Origin: Candidatus Marinacidobacterales bacterium | GTDB taxonomy: Bacteria; Acidobacteriota; Vicinamibacteria; Marinacidobacterales; SMYC01 | DNA length: 64,000 nt | Assembly: GCA_965224085.1 (NCBI GenBank) | Contig: CBDCYI010000004.1 | Span: forward strand, 1,664,001 to 1,728,000 | Direction: 5' to 3' | In this document: one piece after another, positions 1,369 through 42,261 of the stretch | Position numbering within the stretch: position 1 is the stretch's first letter | How the letters are laid out: each line of letters opens with the position of its first letter | Program-made: the position numbers and the translations under genes | Notes under the pieces: model-generated | What the model saw: the letters and a program-made list of their open reading frames with translations, nothing else | What the model was told of the DNA's origin: nothing | The model's database searches: none

Positions 1369-4300
1369 ATGAAGCCCCCCATCGCCGTGGTCGGTATGGG
1401 CGGGATTTTTCCCGGAGCGCCGGACCTCGATCGCTTTTGGGCCAACATCGCCGCCGGCGTGGATGCTTCACGGGAAGTGCCTCCCGATCGCTGGGTTCTG
1501 GATTCCGCTCGGGCTCATGACCCTGAAGTCGGCGCAGCGGACAAGGTGTACTCCACTAGAGGATGCTTTGTTGAGGACTTCCATCTGGACATGCGCGATC
1601 TGGATCTGGATCCAGATGTCGTTGCCGCGCTCGATCCTCTCTTTCACTTGGCGCTCCACGCTTGTCGGCAGGCCGTTGAAGACGCTGGGCTTGGCAAGGG
1701 TAGCCGCGAGCGCGTCGGCGTCGTTATCGGGAACATTGCCCTGCCCACCGACAGCTCTTCGAACATAGCGCGGGAGATCCTCGGCCGAACTTTTGACGAG
1801 AGCACCGGCAACCGGATGGCGTCCGGAGAGCTCGGCCGCACCCATCCTCTCAATCGCTATGTCGCGGGTCTCCCTGCAGGGGTGATGGCCAAAGCCCTGG
1901 GGCTCGGTGGCGGAAGCTGCACGTTGGACGCCGCGTGTGCCTCGTCGCTCTACGCTCTGAAGCTCGCTTCGGATGATCTGATCTCCGGGCGCTCGGACGC
2001 CATGGTCGCCGGGGGGGTGTCTCGTACCAACTGTCTCTATACTCAAATGGGGTTCTCCCAGCTGCGTGCCCTTTCCCCTTCCGGTCGCTGCTCGCCGTTC
2101 GATCGCACGGCCGACGGCCTCGTCGTGGGAGAAGGCGCCGGGATGTTGGTTCTCAAACGCCTGAGCGATGCGCTCAGGGACGGAGACCACATTCACGGCG
2201 TCATCACGGGCATCGGTCTTTCCAACGACGTGGAAGGCAAGCTTCTGGCGCCGAGCACCGAGGGACAGCTCAGGGCCATGCGGCCGGCCTATGAGCAGTC
2301 GGGTTGGTCACCGCAGGATGTCGATCTCATCGAGTGCCACGCCACCGGCACACCGGTGGGCGACGCGGTTGAGCTCGAGAGCTTGAAAAAGCTCTGGGCC
2401 GGGCAGGATGGGCCGTGCGTTATCGGCGGTGTGAAGTCCAACGTGGGACATCTGCTCACTGGGGCCGGCGCCGCGGGATTCATCAAAGTTCTTTTGGCGA
2501 TGAAGGCGCGGACCCTTCCGCCCACGGCCAACTTCTCCCGAGCCGGATCGAAAATGGATCTCGAGGCGAGCCCTTTCAAAGTGCTCGCCGAGGCGCAGCC
2601 CTGGGAGACGCGGGATAGAGCGACTCCGCGCCGCGCCGCCGTAAGCGCTTTCGGCTTTGGCGGCATCAACGCCCACGTGTTGGTCGAGGAATGGACGGGA
2701 AGCATTGAGGATAGCAGCCCTGTCGAAACGCCGGTGGTGCGCGGAGACGCGCCGGTGGCGATCGTCGGCATGGACGCTCACTTCGGATCGATCGCATCCC
2801 TCACGGCCTTCGCGGAGCAGGTGCTCGGCGACGAACGTCGGGATCCGCAGAAGAACGGTTTATGGTGGGGCGTTCAGGAGTCTTCCTGGTTCAAGGACCG
2901 TGGACTCTCGGCAGCTGACTTCAAAGGCCACTTCATGGGCGAGCTCTCCCTGCCCCTCGACCGGTTTCGGATACCTCCGTTGGAGCTCGAGGACATGCTT
3001 CCCCAGCAGTCGTTGATGCTCGCCGTCGCCAAGGGCGCCATGGACGATGCGGGTCTTGGCTCCGAAGAGAAACTCTCGACCGGGGTCTTTGTCGGCATCG
3101 GGTTGGACCTCAACACGACGAACTTCAACTTCCGATGGTCGGTGCTCGCTTCGGAGAAGGCGGAGCGAAACGCTCTTGCCGACGCTGCCGGTCCACCTCT
3201 CACGGCCAACCGAACGATGGGTGCGCTGGGTGGCATCGTTGCGAGCCGCTTGGCTCGGGAGTTCCGCATCGGTGGTTCGAGCTTCACTCTGTCCAGCGAG
3301 GAGACCTCGGGCATCAAGGCGCTTCAAGCAGCGGTGCTGGCGCTCTCGACCGGAAGTGTTCATCAGGCCCTCGTGGGAGCGGTGGATCTCGCCGGTGACG
3401 TAAGGGCCGTCTTGGCGGCTCACGAGGCGCGGCCCAAGGGACAGCGTGGGACACCCCTCCTCGGTGAAGGCGCCGCAGCTTTCGTGCTCAAGCGTCTCGA
3501 GGACGCCGAGGCCGACGGTGATCGGATCTACGCAGTGATCAAAGGCTCGGGAAGCGCCACCGGTGGTGGCGTCGAGACAACCGTGCCCACCGATCGTGCC
3601 TATGAGTCGGCGCTCCGCCGAGCGTACGAAGAATCGGGCATCGTCCCCTCCTCCGTGAGCTACATCGAGACCCATGGCAGCGGCATTCCTTGTGAGGATA
3701 GGGCCGAAAAATCCGCCTTAGCTACACATTTTGCTAGACATTTTCAGTCTCTGGTGGAGCGGCCCGCCACGGGTAGCGTCAAGAAAGATATAGGTCACGC
3801 TGGCGCTGCGTCTGGGATGGCATCCCTTACGAAAACCGCGCTCGCGCTCTACAACCGCGTGCTCCCCGGTCCCGCTCGTCCCTGGTTGAGAAACAGGGCC
3901 GAAGGGCCCCGCCGAGCTGGGGTCAGCGGCATGAGTGTCGACGGAAACTGCTGTCATGTCGTGCTGGAAGAGTACGCGCCGGAAAAGTATCACGAGCCTC
4001 TAGGCAGCGCACGAGCTATCGCGCCGACGACCGACGCCCTCTTCGCTATCGAGGCGGATGATGATGCAGGGCTCGCTGCAGAGAGCCGCCGACTCACGGA
4101 CTGGTTGGACTCACAGTCTGCCAACCATGCCGACGACGACGATGCCCGAATACTGGCGGCTCGCTGGCATCACGACAACCCGCTGCAGCCCGCCCGCAAG
4201 CTCGGCCTTGCCGTGGTCGCCGAACGAAGCTCCGACGTCGGCGACCTGCTTCGGGGTGCCGACGAGACACGGATCTTCGAGAGCAAGAAACCCTTAGCGA

Positions 4301-7300
4301 ATGAAGGTAGCCTTGCTTTTGTCTACCCGGGTTCGGGAAATCACTACCACGGCATGGGGCGTGAGCTCGCCTTGCGTTTTCCCGAGATCCTTCATCGTCA
4401 CGACCGCGAAAACCGCTTCTTGAAGCGGCAGATGGTGCCCGAATGGTTTTGGGGCGCTCGGCCTCCTGAAGATTTTGACGAAAGCCACCACGCTCTTATC
4501 TTCGGCCAAGTTACCCTCGGAACATTGGCCACCGATGTCATGGAGTCCTTCGGGGTTCGCCCCGATGCCGTCATTGGATACAGCCTTGGCGAGTCGGCGG
4601 CCCTGTTCGCCACTCGAACTTGGAAACAGCGAGACGAAATGCTCGCGCGCATGGAAACGTCGTCACTTTTTGTGAGCGACTTGGCCGGTCCTTGCGAGGC
4701 CGTCAAGCGCTCTTGGGGGCTTCCGAACGGTTCTCCCGTGGACTGGTTCGTCGGCGTAGTGGACCGCCCGGCCCGAACCGTGAAGGCCACCTTGCGAGAA
4801 CACGAGCACGTTTACCTGTTAATCATCAACACCCAGGATGAATGTGTCATCGGGGGTGACCGTTCCGCGGTGACGAGATTTGCCTCGTCCCTGGGAGCAA
4901 GTCTCGTTCCCATCAACGGCGTCACCACCGTTCACTGCGAGGTGGCCGGCGAAGTCGAGAAGGCGTATCACGACCTCCATCTCTTCGAAACAACGCCACG
5001 TGATAGCATGCGCTTCTACTCGGTGGCCGGGGGCGGGACTCATGAGGTCACCCGGGAGACGGCGGCGACGTCCATCACCCGCCAGGCCCTTGACGGATTC
5101 GATTTTCCCGCCGTGGTTCACAAAGCCTACGCCGACGGCGTGAGGATATTCGTCGAGATGGGACCTGGTGCTTCCACCAGTCGGATGATCGATAGCATTC
5201 TTCAGGACGAGCCGCACCGCGCCGTCTCGGTGAACGTCCAGGGCCAAGGCGAAGTCAATGCGCTGCTCCGAGGCTTGGCCACGCTCATCGCTGAAAGGGT
5301 CCCCATCGACTTGGGGCCCCTATACAAAGGGCTCGTCGCGTCAGACGAGACGAGGAGCCGCAGTCGATCCCTGAAAGTCACGGTAGGAGGCCGGCCTTTC
5401 ACGGCGCCTGCCCTCATGAGTAAGCGCGTAGTCTCAGGGCGGGCGACGCCGGCCACGCCGCTGTCCGGTGTGGGCGTCGACGTCATTCGGGGGCTCCACC
5501 AAGCGGTGGTTCGTACCGGGGAGGCCCATGGCACCTACTTGCGCGTGAGCAAAGGCCTTCAGGACGCGGTGGCCAAGAACCTTCTCTTTCAAAACCGATT
5601 GCTCCAAAGGATGGGCGATGGCCCGTTGACGATCGCGCCGGCGCCGGCGTCGACCTTGGATCGAGACGCCTGTTTGGAGTTCGCCATCGGCTCCATCGCC
5701 AAAGTCCTCGGTCCCGATTTCGCGCCGGTGGATAGCCACCCCACCCGAGTGCGCCTTCCCGCCGAGCCCCTGATGCTCGTCGATCGCATCATGGAAATCC
5801 ACGGTGAGCCGAGATCCATGAGTCACGGCCGGGTGGTGACCGAGCATGACATTTGTCCTGGAGCCTGGTACCTCGATGGCGGCCGTATCCCCACATGCAT
5901 CGCTGTTGAAGCCGGCCAAGCAGATCTGTTTCTGTCAGCCTACTTGGGCATCGACTTCGTTACCAAAGGTGCCGCCGTCTACCGTCTCCTGGACGCCGAG
6001 GTTACTTTCCATCGAAGTCTTCCCGGGGCCGGCGAGACCATTCGCTACGACATCGCCATCGACCAGTTCTTCAGACAAGGCGACACCCACTTGTTTCGCT
6101 TCAACTTCGAGGCCACGGTGGATGGGGAGCTCTTGCTGAGCATGAAGAAAGGATGCGCGGGGTTCTTCAACGCGGAAGAGCTCGCCGCCGGCAAAGGCAT
6201 CGTTCATTCGCAAATGGACCTCAGACCCCAGCCCGGTGTGCGGTCCGACGACTGGCGTCCGCCTTCTGGATTGGCGGGGATGGGGTTGGTGGAGTCCTAC
6301 GACGACGACGCGATCCAGGCCCTCTGCGACGGCCATCTCGCGGCGTGCTTCGGTGACGCTTTCGCGAACTTGCCCGTGGAAAATCCAGCTACCATTCCCG
6401 GCGGCACCATGAAGCTCTTGGATCGGGTGCTTCATCTCGATCCTCAGGGCGGAAGGTTCGGGCTGGGAATCATCAGGGCCGAGGCGGACATCCACCCCGA
6501 CGCGTGGTTCTTGACTTGCCATTTCAGCGATGACAGGGTCATGCCCGGCACGCTCATGTACGAGTGTTGTCTCCATACATTGCGTGTCTTCCTTCTGCGC
6601 ATGGGGTGGGTGGCTGCCGGGGATCGCGTGGCCTACCAGCCCGTGCCCGGCATCGCCAGCGGGCTGAAGTGCCGCGGCCAAGTGATTCGGTCCACAGACA
6701 AGGTCCAGTACGAAGTCTCTTTGAAGGAGATCGGATACTCGCCGAAGCCCTACGTCATCGTGGACGCCCTCATGTACGCCGACGGAAAGGCCATCGTAGA
6801 GATCACGAACATGTCTCTCCAGCTCGACGGTGTGGATCAAGAGTCGCTCGAGAGAACATGGGTCCTCGGTTCAGGCGGTACGGGCGTCCGTGGCGGGAAA
6901 CCGGCGATCTTCGATACGGATCGCATCACCGCCTTCGCCATCGGCAAGCCTTCAGAAGCTTTCGGTGAGCCCTACAAGGTGTTTGACGGGGAACGGGTCA
7001 TCGCGCGTTTGCCTGGCCCTCCTTACCAGTTCCTCGACCGCATCACCGAGATCGAAGCCGAGCCCTGGAAGCTCGAAGCCCGCGGTGTCATCGAGGCGCA
7101 GTACGAGGTTCCCCGGGACGCTTGGTACTTCGACGCCAACAACCAGGACACCATGCCGTTCGCGGTGCTGCTGGAAGTGGGCCTTCAGCCCTGCGGTTGG
7201 CTGGCGGCTTATCTGGGCTCCGCGTTGACGAGCGAGATCGATCTCTCGTTTCGTAACCTTGGAGGCCAAGGTGTGCAGCATGTTCCGGTCACGCGCGACA

Positions 7301-17991: not shown

Positions 17992-18364
17992 TGCTACCAA
18001 TCCAATGGTGTCTACGAGGTTGTCGTTCCGGTGAAGGATCTGGCGCGGGCCGAGTCCTTCTATTGCGGTGTTCTCGGACTCGAAGTTGGGATTCGGGACG
18101 AAGAACGGAGATGGCTTTTTCTACGCGCGGGAGGAACGGCGGGGATGGTTGTGCTCCAGGAAAACAAGGCGGGGTTTCCCAAGACTCATTTCGCGCTCGC
18201 GGTGAACGAGGGCGACATAGACGCCGCAGCATCTACGCTGAGGAAGCAGGGGATCACCGTCAAGGGCCCCATATTGATTGAGTGGATGCCCGCGAAATCC
18301 ATCTACTTTCGCCGATCCCGACGATCACGATTTGGAGCTGTGTGCGCTCATTGAACGACGCTAG
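17991..18364 (+). pseudogene. VOC/glyoxalase family protein with two +1 frameshifts
   Basis: Reconstructs as MLPINGVYEVVVPVKDLARAESFY...HFAL...SIYFADPDDHDLEL after removing one extra C (~18003) and one extra T (~18309). Confidence 0.7.
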
Positions 18365-18446
18365 CAACAGAACCCTCGGCGGAGCCTCCCTACCGTTTGA
18401 CCCCCTCCTCCCAGGCCGCTACATTCCTCTTTAAATAAGGTTACGA

Positions 18447-18516
18447 ATGGCCCTCACTTCGGGAACCCGCCTAGGCCCCTACGAGATCCTCTCTCCAGTC
18501 GGCAAAGGGGGAATGG
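18447..18516 (+). pseudogene. Ser/Thr protein kinase, N-terminal 23 codons (split by IS110 element)
   Basis: MALTSGTRLGPYEILSPVGKGGM; joins in frame to GEVYKAKD at 21156. Confidence 0.92.
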
Positions 18517-18557
18517 ACTCCCCACGCCGGATCAAGAGAAAACGTTCTTCGTAATAG

Positions 18558-19826
18558 TCATCCGCGATTCGCTTTTTTTGTGGGCCACCGGGAGGGGTCG
18601 TAAAGGGTTCCTTGTCGAAGCATCGCAATGGCGATGGGGAGAATGCGGTCCATGACGCCTCTGAGAGCTCTGGCATGGCTGTGGCCTCTGTCACGAAGCC
18701 GGTCGTAGTGTTCTTTGAAGTGGGGGTCGTGCAAAACGGCAGTGCGTGCCCAATGGTGGAGAGCATTATTGAGGGGCAAAGAGCGAGCTCTCCTCATCAG
18801 GATCGTTGGTCGCAACTGACCGCGCTTGCCGCTCTTTTTTGTGACAGGAGCAATGCCGCCGAGAGTCCTGAAGGCGTTGAGATTACGGAGCCGAATGGGG
18901 TCGTGGGCATAGCAGAGCACGGAGGCGAGCACGTAAGCACCGACGCCGGGCAAAGAGGCAAGAATGGCAGGGTCGGAGCAATGCTCGTCGGTTAGTGCTT
19001 GCACGCGCTTGAACCACTTCTCGAGATGCTGGTCGGAGGCACGACGATGTTGTCGAACGAGGAGCAACTGCTGGAGTAGTAGTTGGAGATGCTCGGCGGT
19101 AGCTTGAGTGGTTGCGGTTGCGACCCGGAGAGGTTTTTGTTTGAGGGTATCGAGGATCTTCTCGGGTTTTAGACGTCGGATGCGGTGTTTTTGAGCGAGG
19201 GTCTCAATGGAGTGGCGGCTAAGAGGGTTGGGGCTGGATTCGAAGAAGAGTTTTAGGAGCTCGCAGAAAAAAGCGTCGAGAGCCTTGTCCTTTGGCGCGA
19301 GCGAGACGAGGTGAGGCCAGCAACGAGTAAGGAGTTCTCGGATCTGCGAGCTGAGGGCCACATGGTTTTTGACGAGTTGGTCGCGGGTACTCAGCAACCC
19401 GCGCATAGCGAGGATCTCCGTAGGTGGGAGATGCAAGCGCTGAAAGCGGTGGCCGTCGGTTCTGAGCGAATCGGCGAGAACGAAGGCGTCTCGCCGATCA
19501 TCCTTGGCGCCGCTCATAGAATGCCGGTCGCGGAAACGGTCGACCTGCTTGGGATTGATGGAGAAAATGGCGATGCCGTGGTCAAGAAAGAGCTCGACGA
19601 CGGCCCCATGAGGTTTTTCGATCGCCACCGCGATGCGCTCGGTATCTTGCGAGGTCTCTTCCAAAAGCCAGTCGATGGTTCCCGATAGTCCTTCGCGGCT
19701 ATGGGGGAAGCCTCTCTCCGCCAAGAAGTTACCTTTGGCATCGACCACACTGGCCAAGTGAAGCCATTGACCCAGGTCGATACCGACGAAGAAGTCGTAT
19801 TTGAGTTGATTCATGGAAGAACTCAT
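18558..19826 (-). CDS. IS110-family DEDD recombinase
   Basis: VGIDLG, AIEKP, KDDRRDA (DEDD tetrad), SLPGVG, and APVTKKSGK with the catalytic Ser. Start is 19826 or 19814. Confidence 0.93.
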   Translation of the reverse strand: MSSSMNQLKYDFFVGIDLGQWLHLASVVDAKGNFLAERGFPHSREGLSGTIDWLLEETSQDTERIAVAIEKPHGAVVELFLDHGIAIFSINPKQVDRFRDRHSMSGAKDDRRDAFVLADSLRTDGHRFQRLHLPPTEILAMRGLLSTRDQLVKNHVALSSQIRELLTRCWPHLVSLAPKDKALDAFFCELLKLFFESSPNPLSRHSIETLAQKHRIRRLKPEKILDTLKQKPLRVATATTQATAEHLQLLLQQLLLVRQHRRASDQHLEKWFKRVQALTDEHCSDPAILASLPGVGAYVLASVLCYAHDPIRLRNLNAFRTLGGIAPVTKKSGKRGQLRPTILMRRARSLPLNNALHHWARTAVLHDPHFKEHYDRLRDRGHSHARALRGVMDRILPIAIAMLRQGTLYDPSRWPTKKANRG

Positions 19827-19837
19827 TTCCGCCAGCG

Positions 19838-20020
19838 CATGTGATGTTTCATCGGCCCCTGTACTGGCGCTCGAAGCGCAACTCCCCACTGGATGTCCAT
19901 CACAAAAGAATTGCCGGCACGCATGTCCATTCCTGGCGCTAGGAGCGCAGGGCGACGTATGGCGTTGCCGGCAAGCTGCTGACGAAATCGAAAATAGTCC
20001 AAGCTCATCGTGATATTTGC
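19838..20020 (-). ncRNA. Predicted bridge RNA (target-binding loop then donor-binding loop)
   Basis: Two guide-UGCGC-loop-GCGCCA-guide units whose guides match the insertion target and the circle junction; closing stems visible. RNA ends uncertain. Confidence 0.85.
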
Positions 20021-20021
20021 T

Positions 20022-20438
20022 CTACCATGGCAATCGGAGTTGTCGCGCGATGCCACGAGTTCGTGCTCGGTTTTTTCTCGGTAGTTTCGGGCGAAGCACG
20101 TCCGAGAGTTTTTCTCGAATGTAAAGAACATAAGGCGGGTCTAGATATTGACTTTGCACTTCCTGGAGCACAGGTGAAAAATAACGAAGGGAGCGAATGG
20201 GCTGCAGTGGCTCCTCATGTTCTTGTAGCTCCCTACGAGCGCAACCCAGAAGTAGGGCACACTCGAATTCGTGTAACGGGACTCCTTGGCGGTAGAGCTG
20301 CGTCGCGATGAAGCGGTCGTCGCGCCGTGGCCGCTCAGGTGTGTTCGGAATGGAAAGATAGAGGTCCAAAATCGTCCGGACGTAATTGTTTTCTGTCAGA
20401 GCATCGCTCGTGAGCGGTTCATTACCCAGCTTCGACAT
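20022..20438 (-). CDS. Hypothetical protein (IS110 cargo ORF B, IRSLRYF motif)
   Basis: 138 aa, GGAGG RBS, overlaps ORF A by 17 nt. Confidence 0.75.
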   Translation of the reverse strand: MSKLGNEPLTSDALTENNYVRTILDLYLSIPNTPERPRRDDRFIATQLYRQGVPLHEFECALLLGCARRELQEHEEPLQPIRSLRYFSPVLQEVQSQYLDPPYVLYIREKLSDVLRPKLPRKNRARTRGIARQLRLPW

Positions 20439-20835
20439 CCTTTAGCCTCCCGCGTCGGCCGCAGATACAGCATTTGGCATATCTGATACTGTCAATCTTC
20501 GTTTTCATTGAATGAGCCATCGGGCCACTAGCTTGAATTTCACGAACTCCTAGACTGCCAGAATTACTGGGGTGAATGAACCCTTGCTCCGTCACTATTT
20601 TCGCCGCCTGGCGTAGACGATAATTCTGTTGCCGAGCCGCGTGGAGTTTTCGTGAGTTGAAACCTTTCTGGTAATTTCGGTTATTTTCGCGCTGGTTCTC
20701 TCGCCGGGTTTCGTCACGGCAGGTTGGACCGCAGTAGCACTGTCCCTGGTAACATGACTTGCAGATGAAGAAAGGCATCCCACAGCTTTTGTTGCGGCAG
20801 AAAAGCCGGAGAAGAACGACAGGTTTGGTGGCCAT
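20422..20835 (-). CDS. Cys-rich putative zinc-binding protein (IS110 cargo ORF A)
   Basis: CRNKSC..ICKSC..QCYCGPTC, then an Arg/Gln-rich helix and C-terminal CCICG. ATG 20835 chosen. Confidence 0.72.
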   Translation of the reverse strand: MATKPVVLLRLFCRNKSCGMPFFICKSCYQGQCYCGPTCRDETRRENQRENNRNYQKGFNSRKLHAARQQNYRLRQAAKIVTEQGFIHPSNSGSLGVREIQASGPMAHSMKTKIDSIRYAKCCICGRRGRLKDVEAG

Positions 20836-21155
20836 TCGGAACTCAGCAAAGTGCTGGACGATGGCCGCCCGGATGTGAGAGGCTAGCTTCAACTTGTAGT
20901 GGAGCGCCTCCTCCGGGGGCCATCCAAACATCAGAGCCCCGGTCGTTTGTAGCGGCTGGGGCTCACTATTGTCGCACAGCAGGTTCACCCTCTTCTTGCC
21001 GGCGCGAGACGATCTGACTGACTCGCGCCAAAGGCGCGAGAGGATGCTGGCCTCGCGCCAGAGGCGCGGGATGAGGCCTTGTACACAGACATTTCCTACC
21101 GACTCTTCCCGCAACACACGCTTTCGCTGCACTGATGCTTCGGCAAGCGTACAGG

Positions 21156-22576
21156 GCGAGGTCTACAAAGCCAAAGACACTCGGCTCGACCGCACAGTGG
21201 CCATCAAAGTCCTCCCCGAGCACCTCGCAGAAAGCCCCGAACGCAAGGCGCGCTTCGAGCGTGAGGCCAAGGCGATTTCGCAGCTCAATCATCCTCACAT
21301 TTGCACCCTTTATGACGTAGGCGAGCAAGACGGGGTCGATTATCTCGTCATGGAGTACATCGAAGGGGAAACGCTGGCGAACGCGCTGAAGCGCGGTGCC
21401 CTGCCACTCGATAAGGCGCTCGAATACGGCATTCAAATCGCGGATGGTCTGGACACGGCGCATCGCGCGGGCATCGTCCACCGAGATCTGAAACCCGCCA
21501 ATGCGATGCTGACGAAGCCCGGTATCAAGCTCTTGGATTTCGGCCTGGCGAGGCTCATCAAAGAAGACGACGGTCCCGAGACATCCGATGCACTTACACG
21601 GCAGAGAGATCTACCAAGGAAGAATCCATCATCGGGACGCTTCAGTACATGGCTCCCGAACAGCTGGAACGGAGGCCGGCGGATGCGCGGACAGACATCT
21701 TCGCTATGGGCGTTGTGCTGTACGAGATGGTTACCGGAAACAAGGCGTTTGCGGGCGAAAGCCAGGCGAGCTTGATCGGCGCTATCTTAAAAGACGATCC
21801 GCCGTCCCTGTCTGCGTTCTCCCCGATGTCGCCTCCGGCGCTGGACCATGTCGTCAAGACGTGCCTCGCCAAAGATCCCGACGAGCGATGCCAGTCAGCG
21901 GGCGAGGTGGAACGCAACTTGAAGTGGATCCGCGACGCCGGAGCCGATGCCAAAGTGTCTGCTCCAACGGGTGTTACTCGACGCGGGTTCTGGTCGCTTT
22001 GTCGACGTACTCCTGGGCGCCGCGCTCGCGACGGCTGTCACGGCCCTTGTCGTCATTGCGCTCATTCGGCCCGACGCACCGCACGTATCTCGCTTAGCTA
22101 TATCCGCTCCGCTCGGGCAACCCATTTCTATGTCGAATTGGAACGTGGACTTGGCGATCTCACCGGACGGCAGCCGGATCGTCTACGTTGGCCAAATCGA
22201 GACAGGAGAACGACAGCTCTTCATTCGTCGTTTGGATCAATACGAACCTGAAGCTCTAGACGGAACGGGTCCTGACCCTCGGAATCCGTTTTTCTCGCCC
22301 GACGGATCGTGGGTGGGGTATGTTGAGGACGTCCAGCCTCGGCGCCTGATGAGGGTCTCCACCCTGGGCGGTCCGCCACTTGTCATCGGTGCGGGCGTCT
22401 TCGTGTGGGGTGCCAGCTGGGGCGCGGACGACAAAACATCATCTTCGCCGAGCGAGGGCGCCTCCTTCGCGTCTCGGCCAGCGGTGGCGAGCCGGAGATT
22501 CTGGCGGCCGCGGATGGGCTCTTCTACTCCTGGCCGGACGTGTTGCCCGGACACTCAACGACAAAAACGACGCTAG
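21156..22576 (+). pseudogene. Ser/Thr kinase + TM + TolB-like propeller, remainder (frameshifted, truncated)
   Basis: VAIKVL, HRDLKPAN, DFGLA, YMAPEQ, ISPDG; frameshifts near 21613, ~21995 and ~22435. Confidence 0.88.
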
Positions 22577-39791: not shown

Positions 39792-40400
39792 GGTCGCACC
39801 CGCAACCACTCAAGCTACCGCCGAGCATCTCCAACTACTACTCCAGCAGTTGCTCCTCGTTCGACAACATCGTCGTGCCTCCGACCAGCATCTCGAGAAG
39901 TGGTTCAAGCGCGTGCAAGCACTAACCGACGAGCATTGCTCCGACCCTGCCATTCTTGCCTCTTTGCCCGGCGTCGGTGCTTACGTGCTCGCCTCCGTGC
40001 TCTGCTATGCCCACGACCCCATTCGGCTCCGTAATCTCAACGCCTTCAGGACTCTCGGCGGCATTGCTCCTGTCACAAAAAAGAGCGGCAAGCGCGGTCA
40101 GTTGCGACCAACGATCCTGATGAGGAGAGCTCGCTCTTTGCCCCTCAATAATGCTCTCCACCATTGGGCACGCACTGCCGTTTTGCACGACCCCCACTTC
40201 AAAGAACACTACGACCGGCTTCGTGACAGAGGCCACAGCCATGCCAGAGCTCTCAGAGGCGTCATGGACCGCATTCTCCCCATCGCCATTGCGATGCTTC
40301 GACAAGGAACCCTTTACGACCCCTCCCGGTGGCCCACAAAAAAAGCGAATCGCGGATGACTATTACGAAGAACGTTTTCTCTTGATCCGGCGTGGGGAGT
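39792..40400 (+). mobile_element. Second, 5'-truncated copy of the IS110 element inserted in rnr
   Basis: Near-identical to the reverse complement of 18517-~19125; ends GTGGGGAGT followed by CC core. Confidence 0.93.
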
Positions 40401-42261
40401 CCATTTTGTCCGCCATGAAACGGACTTTCTTCCAATCAACAAGCTCGCGCTCCGCCTCTTCCGCGCGCCGCTCGGTAATCGAGCTGTGCTCGGCGATGTC
40501 TTCGAGGCCGTCTTCCGAGGGCTCTTCGGCGCGCCCCAGCTTTCGCAAGAGACGATGCACGACCAGATCCGGGTAGCGGCGAATGGGCGACGTGACATGG
40601 GTGTAAGACGATGTCGCGAGCGCGTAGTGGCCCGCCTGCTCGGCCGAGTAGACGGCTTTTTTCATCGTGCGCAACATCGCGAAAGAGATGAGCCGCTCCT
40701 CCGGCTTGCCTTCGATACGCCGGAGAAGTTTTTGAAACGCTTTGGACGAGATGGACTCCGACGGCGCCCGCAAACGATAGCCGAGCCCGAGAATGAAGTC
40801 CTCGAATTGCTCGACGCGATCCTCATCCGGAGCTTCGTGCAAACGGTGGATAGAAGGAACATCTCGATTCGAAAGGAAGCGCGCGACCTCTTCATTCGCG
40901 AGCAGCATGAACTCTTCGATCAGGCGATGAGCGACGTTGCGCTCCGCAACGCAAATGTCGACGATCGCACCTTCCTCATCGAGAACGACTTCCGCTTCCG
41001 GCCGGTCGAAGTCGATCGATCCTCGAGCGCCACGACGCGCGCGAAGAATCTGGTAGAGCGCGAGCATTTTCTCGAACTCGGGCAGAAGTGAGGCATATTC
41101 GCGCCTGAGGTCCTCGCCGTCCTCGGAGAGAATCCCAAAGACGTTCGTATAAGTCATGCGCGCGGCGCTTCGAATGACGCCGTCGGTAAAGCGGCTTCGA
41201 ACGACCTCACCGTTCGGCGAGACTTCGATGAAAACGCTCTGCACGAGGCGGTCCACGCCGGGCTTCAAGCTGCAGATGCCGTTCGACAGGCGTTCGGGGA
41301 GCATCGGGACGGCGCGGTCGGGGAAATAGACGGAGGTCCCGCGACGGAACGCTTCGCGATCGAGGAGCGTTCCGTCGCGTACATAATGCGAGACATCCGC
41401 GATGTGCACACCGAGCCGGTAATGGCCGTTATCGAGAAGCTCCACTTCGACCGCATCATCGAAATCGCGCGCCGTCTCCCCGTCGATAGTGACGATGAGC
41501 CGTTTGCGAAAGTCTTCCCTTCCTTCGAGCGCGTCGTCACCTAGCTCGGCCTCGACCGACTCGGCCTCCGCCAAGACATCTTCAGGGAAGACCTCCGCAA
41601 TGCCGTGCTTCGCGAGCACGACCCGCACATCGACGCCCGGCTCGTCGACGCTGCCGAGAACTTGGATAATCCGCCCCATCGGTGCGCGGTAAGGCGACGG
41701 AAAGCGCGTGAGCTCGACGACAACCATATCGCCTGCCGCGGCACCCATCAGATCGTTCGCAGGCAGGAAGACTTCGTAAAGAAGACGCGCATCGAAGGGA
41801 ACGACCCGCGTCCCGCCGGAGTCGATCTCGAGACGACCGACGAGCGACGTCGTCCGCCGCTCCAAGACATCGACGATGCGTCCTTCGGGCCGACCTTCCC
41901 GCCCGCGCCGGTCGATGTGGACGAGCACCCGATCACCGTGAAGCGCCTCGCCGAGATGGCCTCCGGCGACATAGACGTCTCCTTGCCCGCGCTCCACCGG
42001 AACGACGAAGCCGAACCCGCCGCGCTTGACCTCGAGCCGTCCAGCGACGAGATCCATCTTCTCTGGAAGCCCAATCCGATCCGCTCGCGTGCGCGCAAGC
42101 TCCCCTTTGGCGATCATGTCTTCGATGACACGCTGCGCCTCCACCCGCGCCTCGCCTTTTACCCGGAGCTGTTTGAGGAGATCTTTCTCGGTGGTAGGCC
42201 GGCCGAGCTTCCGAAGGCGTTCGCGAATCTTCTCGCGGATCGAGTCTGAATCGAGTGTCAT
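40363..42261 (-). CDS. rnr: Ribonuclease R, C-terminally truncated by IS110 (S1 domain lost)
   Basis: GGFGFV, TIDGETARDFDDA, HIADVSHYV, IEEFMLLAN, TSPIRRYPDL. After FMADKM the frame reads into the IS end. Confidence 0.93.
   Translation of the reverse strand: MTLDSDSIREKIRERLRKLGRPTTEKDLLKQLRVKGEARVEAQRVIEDMIAKGELARTRADRIGLPEKMDLVAGRLEVKRGGFGFVVPVERGQGDVYVAGGHLGEALHGDRVLVHIDRRGREGRPEGRIVDVLERRTTSLVGRLEIDSGGTRVVPFDARLLYEVFLPANDLMGAAAGDMVVVELTRFPSPYRAPMGRIIQVLGSVDEPGVDVRVVLAKHGIAEVFPEDVLAEAESVEAELGDDALEGREDFRKRLIVTIDGETARDFDDAVEVELLDNGHYRLGVHIADVSHYVRDGTLLDREAFRRGTSVYFPDRAVPMLPERLSNGICSLKPGVDRLVQSVFIEVSPNGEVVRSRFTDGVIRSAARMTYTNVFGILSEDGEDLRREYASLLPEFEKMLALYQILRARRGARGSIDFDRPEAEVVLDEEGAIVDICVAERNVAHRLIEEFMLLANEEVARFLSNRDVPSIHRLHEAPDEDRVEQFEDFILGLGYRLRAPSESISSKAFQKLLRRIEGKPEERLISFAMLRTMKKAVYSAEQAGHYALATSSYTHVTSPIRRYPDLVVHRLLRKLGRAEEPSEDGLEDIAEHSSITERRAEEAERELVDWKKVRFMADKMDSPRRIKRKRSS

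Follow-up and report, generated by a model that had tools for sequence, protein, structure and literature searches.

IS110 bridge recombinases have been described and engineered as single-protein, single-RNA systems, and the locus reported here raises the question of what two additional protein genes do inside such an element. The locus lies in a window of 64,000 nucleotides (the whole stretch of DNA that was analyzed) from a Candidatus Marinacidobacterales bacterium. An earlier note on this DNA had described two overlapping open reading frames, ORF A and ORF B, had placed them inside an IS110-family insertion sequence (IS), and had suggested that they might regulate, replicate or target the excised circle. 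The A + B pair is not specific to IS110; the same pair constitutes the first and the last gene of a subfamily of IS21 elements. We put the probability that A + B form an accessory module shared by mobile elements at about 0.9. The further step, that they would bind the excised circle and recruit the host replication machinery, is a tentative proposal to which we assign a probability of about 0.4.

The minus-strand order of the element is left-end (LE) terminus, 320-nt leader, ORF A, ORF B, bridge-RNA candidate, recombinase and right end (RE). The features are listed below by window position.

18517..21155, minus strand: whole IS110-family element, 2,639 bp including one GG core copy.
20836..21155, minus strand: left-end leader, with the LE terminus CTGTACGC..., a duplicated hairpin unit (21022-21077) and a hairpin block (20934-20964).
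20422..20835, minus strand: ORF A, 137 aa, with eight conserved Cys residues and an Arg-rich helix, without a named family.
20022..20438, minus strand: ORF B, 138 aa, predicted five-helix domain of the DnaD C-terminal (DDBH2) type plus a basic disordered tail.
19822..19992, minus strand: bridge-RNA candidate, with two predicted stem-loops (19974-19911 and 19904-19840).
18558..19814, minus strand: recombinase, IS110-family DEDD; the longest ORF starts from GTG 19889.
18517..18557, minus strand: right end, with TTGATC as candidate −35 element of a circle-junction promoter.
18447..18516, plus strand: 5' part of the interrupted Ser/Thr kinase gene, ending in MALTSGTRLGPYEILSPVGKGGM at the insertion point.
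21156..21775, plus strand: continuation of the kinase gene, beginning with GEVYKAKDTRLDRTVAIKVL... at the insertion point; Pkinase match of 3.4e-32 from profile position 13.

ORF A and ORF B are genuine genes, coupled to each other and kept by purifying selection. All sequence motifs that the earlier note had listed for the two frames are present, and the frames overlap by 17 nt (20422-20438), with a Shine-Dalgarno-like GGGAGG about 9 nt 5' of the ORF B ATG. ORF A begins at an internal ATG (20835) of a long minus-strand frame (20422..21132). We take this ATG as the real start, since more distant relatives, of 134 aa, begin at the same point, with MA.KPVVLL at the position that matches the M of 20835 in the homologue alignments; the frame upstream of the ATG is kept only in close relatives, as DNA. 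The ratio of nonsynonymous to synonymous substitution rates (dN/dS, method NG86) was 0.32 for ORF A between the window and a related locus, L061 (L and G numbers are our handles for loci and genomes), 0.16-0.34 for ORF B and 0.26 for the recombinase, so that the non-coding character which the earlier note had allowed for does not apply. Both frames are intact in IS110-type loci of other sources (L061, L075, L076, L078 and L143), and ORF B is intact in all copies in the element's own genome except the deletion derivative L005. Word-index searches gave 14 homologues of ORF A and 72 of ORF B, and the clean ORF A profile found 3,830 representatives at E ≤ 1e-3, of which 2,544 also pass E ≤ 1e-10.

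Relatives of these genes were also seen in RNA libraries. In a sponge metatranscriptome (run X17), a 288-nt contig reproduces 20077-20364 of ORF B at 100% identity, and marine-sediment RNA libraries contain 90-95% relatives of both ORFs, of the RNA region and of the recombinase. These data are assembled contigs in which DNA carry-over is possible, and what they say about transcription is limited accordingly. A peak in contig depth at 19845-19937 in an RNA library is the same in a DNA run.

The wider distribution of the pair was surveyed with profiles in 401 genomes of the same phylum, including the element's own genome and the unpublished genome G049. ORF B was found in 25 genomes, often with 7-10 matches per genome, ORF A in 30, and both in 14; without G049, which is included only in these tallies, the numbers are 24, 29 and 13 out of 400. 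No p-value is given for the co-occurrence because the genomes of a phylum are related and not independent. The 20 ORF B-anchored loci that were fetched show ORF A and ORF B not adjacent to each other; they bracket the IS21 gene pair. An example is locus L045 of genome G385, with ORF A at 2328-2771, IstA at 2775-4244, IstB at 4168-4989 and ORF B at 4974-5345. ORF A translationally abuts istA there and ORF B overlaps the end of istB. This element measures 3,362 bp, has recognizable terminal repeats and occurs in at least 12 copies in G385. The L045 copy sits within another repeat (uninterrupted form about 25 times in the genome). Further instances of the order A-istA-istB-B, IstA-IstB-B and A-B-IS110 occur in metagenome-assembled genomes (MAGs) of, respectively, Acidimicrobiia (Actinomycetota; L067), Gemmatimonadota (L062) and 'Candidatus Marinacidobacterales' (L061, about 90% identity).

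An ORF A-anchored scan of metagenomes gave 600 pattern hits and 396 relatives, of which the best 80 were annotated; the locus counts that follow refer to these best 80 of 396. The complete order A-IstA-IstB-B was present in 20 loci, and 24 more, mostly cut by contig ends, had IstA and/or IstB beside ORF A. These complete loci and the several genomes described above bear out the suggestion in the earlier note that similar ORFs stand beside other transposases. Two loci (L105 and L107) are deletion forms in which ORF A and ORF B flank a deleted istB (A-delta-IstB-B). The slot after IstB is occupied by ORF B in 20 of the 23 IS21-type loci with sequence past IstB, and otherwise by a RepB-type primase (L138), an AAA_25 ATPase (L106) or an IS3-like insertion (L090). 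The order A-B-IS110 was found in four loci (L075, L076, L078 and L143), and A-B lacking a resolved downstream gene in seven, two of which (L077 and L079) carry the IS110-type left end. ORF A was followed by a DnaG-like primase in nine loci, seven of them with tyrosine recombinases, and by a RepB-type primase and two tyrosine recombinases in L097; in the 2 of 10 primase loci where no tyrosine recombinase was visible the contigs end inside the primase. One locus (L133) has an IstA fragment and two tyrosine recombinases, and 14 loci could not be assigned, one with DDE_Tnp_1 and three with faint IstA-like matches only.

Eight of these loci (L095, L098, L123, L126, L130, L144, L147 and L097) are compact elements in which an ORF A-family gene, a primase gene of DnaG-like or RepB type, and two tyrosine recombinase genes point in one direction; no description of such an element was found in the open-access literature. 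In G063, one of the surveyed genomes, ORF A and IstA are followed after about 3.6 kb by an AAA_25 ATPase, with a further rve-type transposase and an AAA_22 ATPase in between. Genomes G399, G393 and G250 (L168, L169, L173 and L175) have ORF A directly 5' of ArdC-type genes (ArdcN, MPTase-PolyVal), which are followed by VirB2/VirB3/VirB4-like genes in a conjugative-element context. The pair occurs in IS21 and IS110 elements, and ORF A alone in addition heads primase/tyrosine-recombinase elements and regions with ArdC and type IV secretion system (T4SS) genes. Searches of the plasmids of PLSDB with ORF B (tblastn) gave no match, and viral contigs contained no relative of ORF A or ORF B. IS21-type terminal repeats around the A-B block in the window were looked for and not found, and the IstB-like matches in the element's own genome are only 34% identical and located elsewhere than in the element.

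The relationship between the IS110 and IS21 forms was examined in a quick IQ-TREE phylogeny of 80 ORF A sequences, the rows being loci with at least 90 profile positions; it has few columns and many unresolved forks. The seven IS110-type rows form one clade with an SH-aLRT support value of 95, nested among IS21-type rows. The ORF A of L143, a locus with the same A-B arrangement and a very divergent IS110 recombinase, stands apart on a long branch, and the primase-type rows are scattered.

The earlier note had compared ORF B with the C-terminal domains of replication initiators, and this comparison found indirect support. The motif ALLLGCARR...IRSLRYFSPVLQE was confirmed. An AlphaFold2 (AF2) model with a predicted local distance difference test score (pLDDT) of 79 shows five helices and then a disordered basic tail. 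The ORF B profile matched three chromosomal acidobacterial proteins (L055, L056 and L059) at about 1e-6, and each of these in turn matches, over the same residues, phrog_7498, which is annotated 'DnaD-like helicase loader' (2.7e-12, 6.7e-9 and 7.3e-11). Comparison of the ORF B alignment with the three proteins by hhalign gave a probability of 97% and an E value of 1e-10 over 84 columns. Long forms of ORF B have an N-terminal winged helix with weak matches to HTH_36 and to the N-terminal part of phrog_186, likewise a DnaD-like helicase loader (E 1e-4). In ORF B the series Y86-x3-V90-x3-V94 is present, with Y86, P89 and E93 invariant. Structural alignment with VIA-align gave Z 5.6 and a root-mean-square deviation of 2.9 over 73/75 residues for the DnaD-like 2zc2_B, and Z 4.6 for 2i5u_A, both values lying below the noise level of the tool.

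From the profile and hhalign kinship we call ORF B a divergent DnaD C-terminal-type (DDBH2) domain, as judged from its sequence relatives, and not a member of the Pfam family DnaB_2. Foldseek searches of the PDB with the ORF B model found no relative (best E value 0.9), and the PDB sequence profile search returned nothing meaningful, only designed repeat proteins at E 0.11. The distribution of ORF A adds to this picture. The ORF B-anchored set of 27 loci comprises 15 with short ORF B, 9 with long ORF B and 3 with the distant DnaD-like proteins, and ORF A is present in 10/15 of the short and 0/9 of the long class. From this complementary distribution we propose that ORF A may substitute for the N-terminal domain that short ORF B lacks. 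Longer fused forms of ORF B were not found, an absence that the search tool itself calls weak evidence.

ORF A contains the motifs C13-x4-C18, C25-x2-C28 and C33-x-C35-x3-C39, an Arg-rich stretch, predicted to be helical at about residues 39-83, and C122-C123-I-C125-G. Columns C18, C25, C28, C35, C39, C122 and C125 and several Arg positions are invariant, and C13 is nearly so. The Cys pattern C..C..CxxC..YC(S)xxC presumably resembles that of cross-brace zinc fingers of the MYND/HIT type; the profile search did not reproduce this resemblance, since no zinc-finger Pfam family matched 13 ORF A members at E ≤ 10 except Prok-RING_4, at E 3.7 in one of them. ORF A belongs to no family in Pfam, NCBIfam, PHROGs or PADLOC and has no PDB relative by sequence profile; the ESM Atlas holds unnamed clusters only for both proteins. 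A separate PADLOC search with six members of the ORF A and ORF B families matched 0 families at E ≤ 0.1, in a library of defense and not anti-defense models. The conserved residues suggest that ORF A is a two-zinc nucleic-acid-binding protein. Its family is large, unnamed and apparently specific to mobile elements, because it travels with IS21, IS110 and primase/tyrosine-recombinase elements and with conjugative regions, and its partners are mostly DNA-priming or helicase-loading proteins.

That the pair lies inside an IS110 element, as the earlier note had stated, was established from repeated copies. The recombinase matches DEDD_Tnp_IS110 (PF01548, 3.1e-31), Transposase_20 (PF02371, 1.2e-11) and, above cut-off, the NCBIfam model transpos_IS110 (NF033542, 1.3e-47); its start is likely ATG 19814 (MNQLKYDFFVGIDLG) because the region upstream is RNA. 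A search of the own genome (6.87 Mb in 12 contigs) with 18400-21200 as query showed a repeated unit of about 18507-21157 with three further full copies at 99.8-100% identity (L002-L004), so the element moves as one 2.64-kb unit. The same search found diverged copies of about 85-90% identity (L006 and L007) and deletion or truncation derivatives (L005, L008, L009 and L010). The ends were refined to 18517-21155 from conserved end motifs after removal of target bases, the flanks of the copies being alike because the target is conserved. GG is present on both sides (flank 18515-16 and 21154-55), and no terminal inverted repeats were found at the element ends.

The derivatives differ in what they have lost. 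L005 lacks window 20334-20507, which is the end of ORF A and the start of ORF B, and L009 lacks most of the recombinase gene. L010 terminates precisely at the stop codon of ORF B, and its left side runs into the middle of another kinase gene; this locus was considered as an ancestral IS110 devoid of ORF A and ORF B and rejected, being a rearranged, truncated copy with its RE in a kinase glycine-rich loop (G-loop) like the others. The window and L006/L007 subfamilies are about 90% identical over the recombinase, RNA and ORF B, with no megablast similarity across much of ORF A (20522-20728); from this dissimilarity, either the element is a mosaic or ORF A evolves much faster. A 614-bp IS fragment at 39792-40405 (right end and 3' part of the recombinase gene, in opposite orientation) abuts the 3' end of a long minus-strand gene (40363..42261).

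The target of the element is a protein-coding sequence. At ten junctions, RE and/or LE, the element adjoins G-loop codons of kinase genes, in the window, L003, L005, L006, L007, L010, L061, L075 and L077-L079. Insertion was always antisense, within codons for G-x-G-G-M on one side of the insertion point and G-E/D-V-Y on the other (DNA GGNGGNATGG, then GC across the insertion point), and was seen in the own genome, the related MAG and metagenome contigs. Seven free GGNGGNATGGGCGA sites are left in the own genome.

The 170-nt spacer between the ORF B stop and the recombinase is near-invariant in seven loci in which the ORF A proteins are only 47-54% identical to that of the window. The RNAalifold consensus of the spacer has 51 pairs and two stem-loops. 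The first loop contains C[ACT]GG[ATG]ATGGAC, matching the target GGNATGG; in the second, GTGGGGAGT corresponds to the RE end and GTACAGG is complementary to the LE end. At the variable guide position the window subfamily has A, with GGAATGG targets in the window, L002 and L003, and the L006 subfamily has T, with GGTATGG targets in L007 and L010. An Rfam scan of 18300-21400 gave no match. We take the spacer to be the bridge RNA of the element, as a candidate recognized by its pairing and guide positions. Because this candidate already accounts for the target, the targeting role that the earlier note had considered for A + B loses ground.

About 1.16 kb, consisting of the leader and the two genes, separates the LE terminus from the RNA. 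The leader beside ORF A (20836-20975) is more conserved across lineages than ORF A itself, and in the alignment of seven IS110-type loci its hairpin at 20934-20964 shows a compensatory change in L079. A 26-nt palindromic unit is duplicated in the window and L061 (21022-21077) and single in other lineages. The leader may function as operator, RNA element or origin. Comparison by nhmmer with the region upstream of ORF A in IS21-type loci gave weak matches, with E values of 1.9e-5 for L067 and 8.7e-4 for L087. No sigma-70-like promoter was found inside the linear element, so that ORF A, ORF B, the RNA and the recombinase are probably on one transcript.

These observations lead to the following proposal for the module. 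A + B would be the first genes transcribed from a promoter that the joining of RE and LE restores in the excised circle. ORF A would replace the winged-helix N-domain that the long, A-less forms of ORF B carry, and from this substitution the two proteins might act together as a split DnaD-like replisome organizer. They would bind the excised circle, in the case of IS110, or the copy-out intermediate, in the case of IS21, and recruit helicase-loading and priming machinery of the host, and the excised intermediate would be copied instead of lost. Among the roles named in the earlier note, replication gains circumstantial support from the kinship of ORF B with DnaD and from the primases and AAA_25 ATPase that replace B or accompany A, as well as from IstB as a relative of DnaC-type loaders. 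A complex prediction for ORF A, ORF B and 2 Zn scored 0.00 and speaks neither for nor against binding.

Several observations weigh against the replication proposal. ORF B itself has no Pfam, NCBIfam or PHROG match. PF07261 (DnaB_2) did not match 26 members of the ORF B family at E ≤ 10, and a search of the own genome with this model gave nothing at E ≤ 0.01. The DnaD motif YxxxIxxxW, as given in the accessible part of PMC2978336, is incomplete in ORF B, where V, L or R occupies the position of the W. AAA+ lid domains lead the VIA-align list at Z 6.3, again under the noise level. Because the AF2 model of ORF A is poor (pLDDT 52, too low for a structure search and usable for secondary structure only), its two-zinc cross-brace is proposed from Cys conservation only. 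ORF A is disrupted in two variants, L004 and L008 having a common 1-nt insertion and the L006/L007 subfamily having ORF A read in two frames. Each disrupted variant is present in at least two copies, and ORF A is therefore dispensable, at least in cis. Genome G258 has A-IstA-IstB with no ORF B, in 8 matches. The position of ORF A beside ArdC and T4SS genes fits a generic operon-head role as well as one in replication. The context proportions are biased, since ORF A served to find the loci and the 80 annotated ones had the best scores out of at least 396. The junction promoter TTGATC-17 nt-TACGCT, although the same in two subfamilies, matches the sigma-70-like consensus against which it was scored at 7/12 positions, under the scanner threshold; acidobacterial promoters may differ from that consensus. 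Finally, IS110 recombination needs no replication, according to the part of PMC11208160 available to us.

The rival that we consider most seriously, while judging it rather unlikely, is that ORF A is a zinc-dependent DNA- or RNA-binding regulator that heads operons and binds the leader, with ORF B as a DNA-architectural cofactor, the two setting the level or timing of bridge-RNA, recombinase or IstAB expression. ORF A is always the first gene, whether istA, B, a primase gene or ardC follows, and this place at the head of very different operons suits a regulator equally well. The conserved, structured leader with its hairpins and one compensatory change, and the single transcript that ORF A, ORF B, RNA and recombinase probably share, agree with such a regulator, as does G258, where ORF A occurs in the absence of both ORF B and a replication gene. 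However, no regulator fold or family is recognizable in either protein, kinship of ORF B was detected only with replication proteins of the DnaD type, and the ORF B slot of IS21 elements can hold a primase or an AAA_25 ATPase, not regulators.

It is improbable, in our estimate, that A + B instead serve establishment or host interaction in the manner of leading-region genes of conjugative elements, by protecting or processing single-stranded or newly excised DNA or by countering defense, and do not promote replication. The ORF A genes directly 5' of ArdC-type anti-restriction genes in T4SS regions (L168, L169, L173 and L175) point in this direction, and DDBH2 domains bind both single- and double-stranded DNA, according to the accessible text of PMC2978336. 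The six family members had no match in PADLOC, the models of which cover defense only, and the viral contigs held no relative. The intermediates of IS110 and IS21 are not known to be single-stranded, which tells against this idea too. Least probable of all is that the leader-A-B block is an inert remnant of an IS21-type element that lost istAB, was captured in an IS110 left end and hitch-hikes there. Such a history would agree with the A-delta-istB-B intermediates in L105 and L107, with the weak similarity of the leader to IS21-type upstream regions and with the multiplication of four own-genome copies in which ORF A is frameshifted. Capture of cargo by IS110 elements is documented in what could be seen of bioRxiv 10.64898/2026.08.14.744561. 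Against inertness stand dN/dS values of about 0.3 for both genes, the intactness of both in an IS110-type clade with ORF A only 47-54% identical to that of the window, the retention of the tight A/B overlap with its Shine-Dalgarno-like motif, the recurrence of the A-B arrangement with the second, very divergent recombinase of L143, and the failure to find IS21 terminal repeats around the block.

A bolder form of the replication proposal, which we regard as a long shot, is that A + B, joined in sister elements by primases or a RepA-like ATPase, make up a minimal replication-initiation cassette by which the excised IS circle would become, for a short time, a self-replicating episome. If true, a single cassette would have been plugged into three unrelated recombination systems, namely the DDE transposase of IS21, the RNA-guided recombinase of IS110 and pairs of tyrosine recombinases. 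The boundary between insertion sequence and integrative plasmid would be blurred, and the life cycle of such IS110 elements would be replicative, not conservative.

Cargo-bearing IS110 elements are already known, as far as the available text of bioRxiv 10.64898/2026.08.14.744561 shows. The A + B accessory pair in IS110 and the four-gene IS21 form appear to be new here: no description of the pair, of a four-gene IS21 or of targeting of the kinase loop by IS110 was found in open-access papers and preprints. A natural lineage with two extra proteins between the left end and the bridge RNA suggests that what becomes of the circular donor could be tuned by cofactors that are proteins. A role for the ORF A family would provide an annotation for thousands of 'hypothetical' genes and might reveal by what means small elements ensure that their intermediates are replicated or expressed. 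The RNA guide of the element apparently addresses DNA that encodes the Ser/Thr kinase glycine loop, a protein-coding target that is both conserved and multicopy.

Comparison with known replication proteins places ORF B nearest to DnaD and DnaB. Like their DDBH2 domains it is small and helical, with a conserved Y-x3-aliphatic motif in the penultimate helix. It ends with a last helix and a basic disordered tail, similar to the DNA-binding module of DnaD described in the accessible part of PMC2978336, and the long ORF B forms carry an N-terminal winged helix. The resemblance to phage helicase loaders (PHROG 7498/186) extends to gene context, as ORF B is encoded beside a DnaC/DnaI-like AAA+ gene, that of IstB. 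ORF B differs from DnaD in occurring in insertion sequences of Acidobacteriota, whereas DnaD occurs in Firmicutes chromosomes or phages, and in having no N-domain, with ORF A adjoining instead. The C-terminal bundle of RepB' primase (PF22448) weakly matched 2/26 ORF B-family members at E 0.0055 and one long ORF B form at 0.0069; all these matches are far under the curated cut-off of 26.1 bits, and ORF B itself gave none. RepB-type primases further differ from ORF B, which has no catalytic primase domain, and full primases of this type occupy the ORF B slot in L138 and follow ORF A in L097.

Most relatives of ORF A and ORF B are found in IS21-type elements. Canonical IS21 is known as an element of two genes only, and its product IstB is akin to DnaC-type loaders. 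The window element differs from the IS21-type relatives in lacking istA and istB between ORF A and ORF B.

As in IS621 and other IS110 elements (Durrant et al. 2024, PMC11208160), the recombinase of the window element has DEDD_Tnp_IS110 and Transposase_20 domains, a candidate two-loop structured RNA with matches to the target and to the ends of the donor lies 5' of it, insertion is sequence-specific with a dinucleotide core at either side, and terminal inverted repeats are absent. The candidate promoter divided between RE and LE would be a further likeness, though its match is weak in the window element. In the canonical case of that paper RE-LE measures 298 bp and the RNA begins at the junction promoter, whereas the RNA candidate of the window lies about 1.16 kb past the LE terminus, behind the leader and two protein genes, in an element of 2.64 kb as compared to about 1.3-1.5 kb. 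Like the cargo-bearing IS110 elements of bioRxiv 10.64898/2026.08.14.744561, it is oversized, carries extra genes and moves as a unit. The cargo there is described as adaptive and plasmid-derived (antimicrobial and metal resistance), and the words 'IS21', 'zinc' and 'hypothetical' do not occur in the main text of that preprint (Hu et al.). The extra genes of the window element are, in contrast, a conserved pair common to IS21 and other recombinase systems and kept across a clade.

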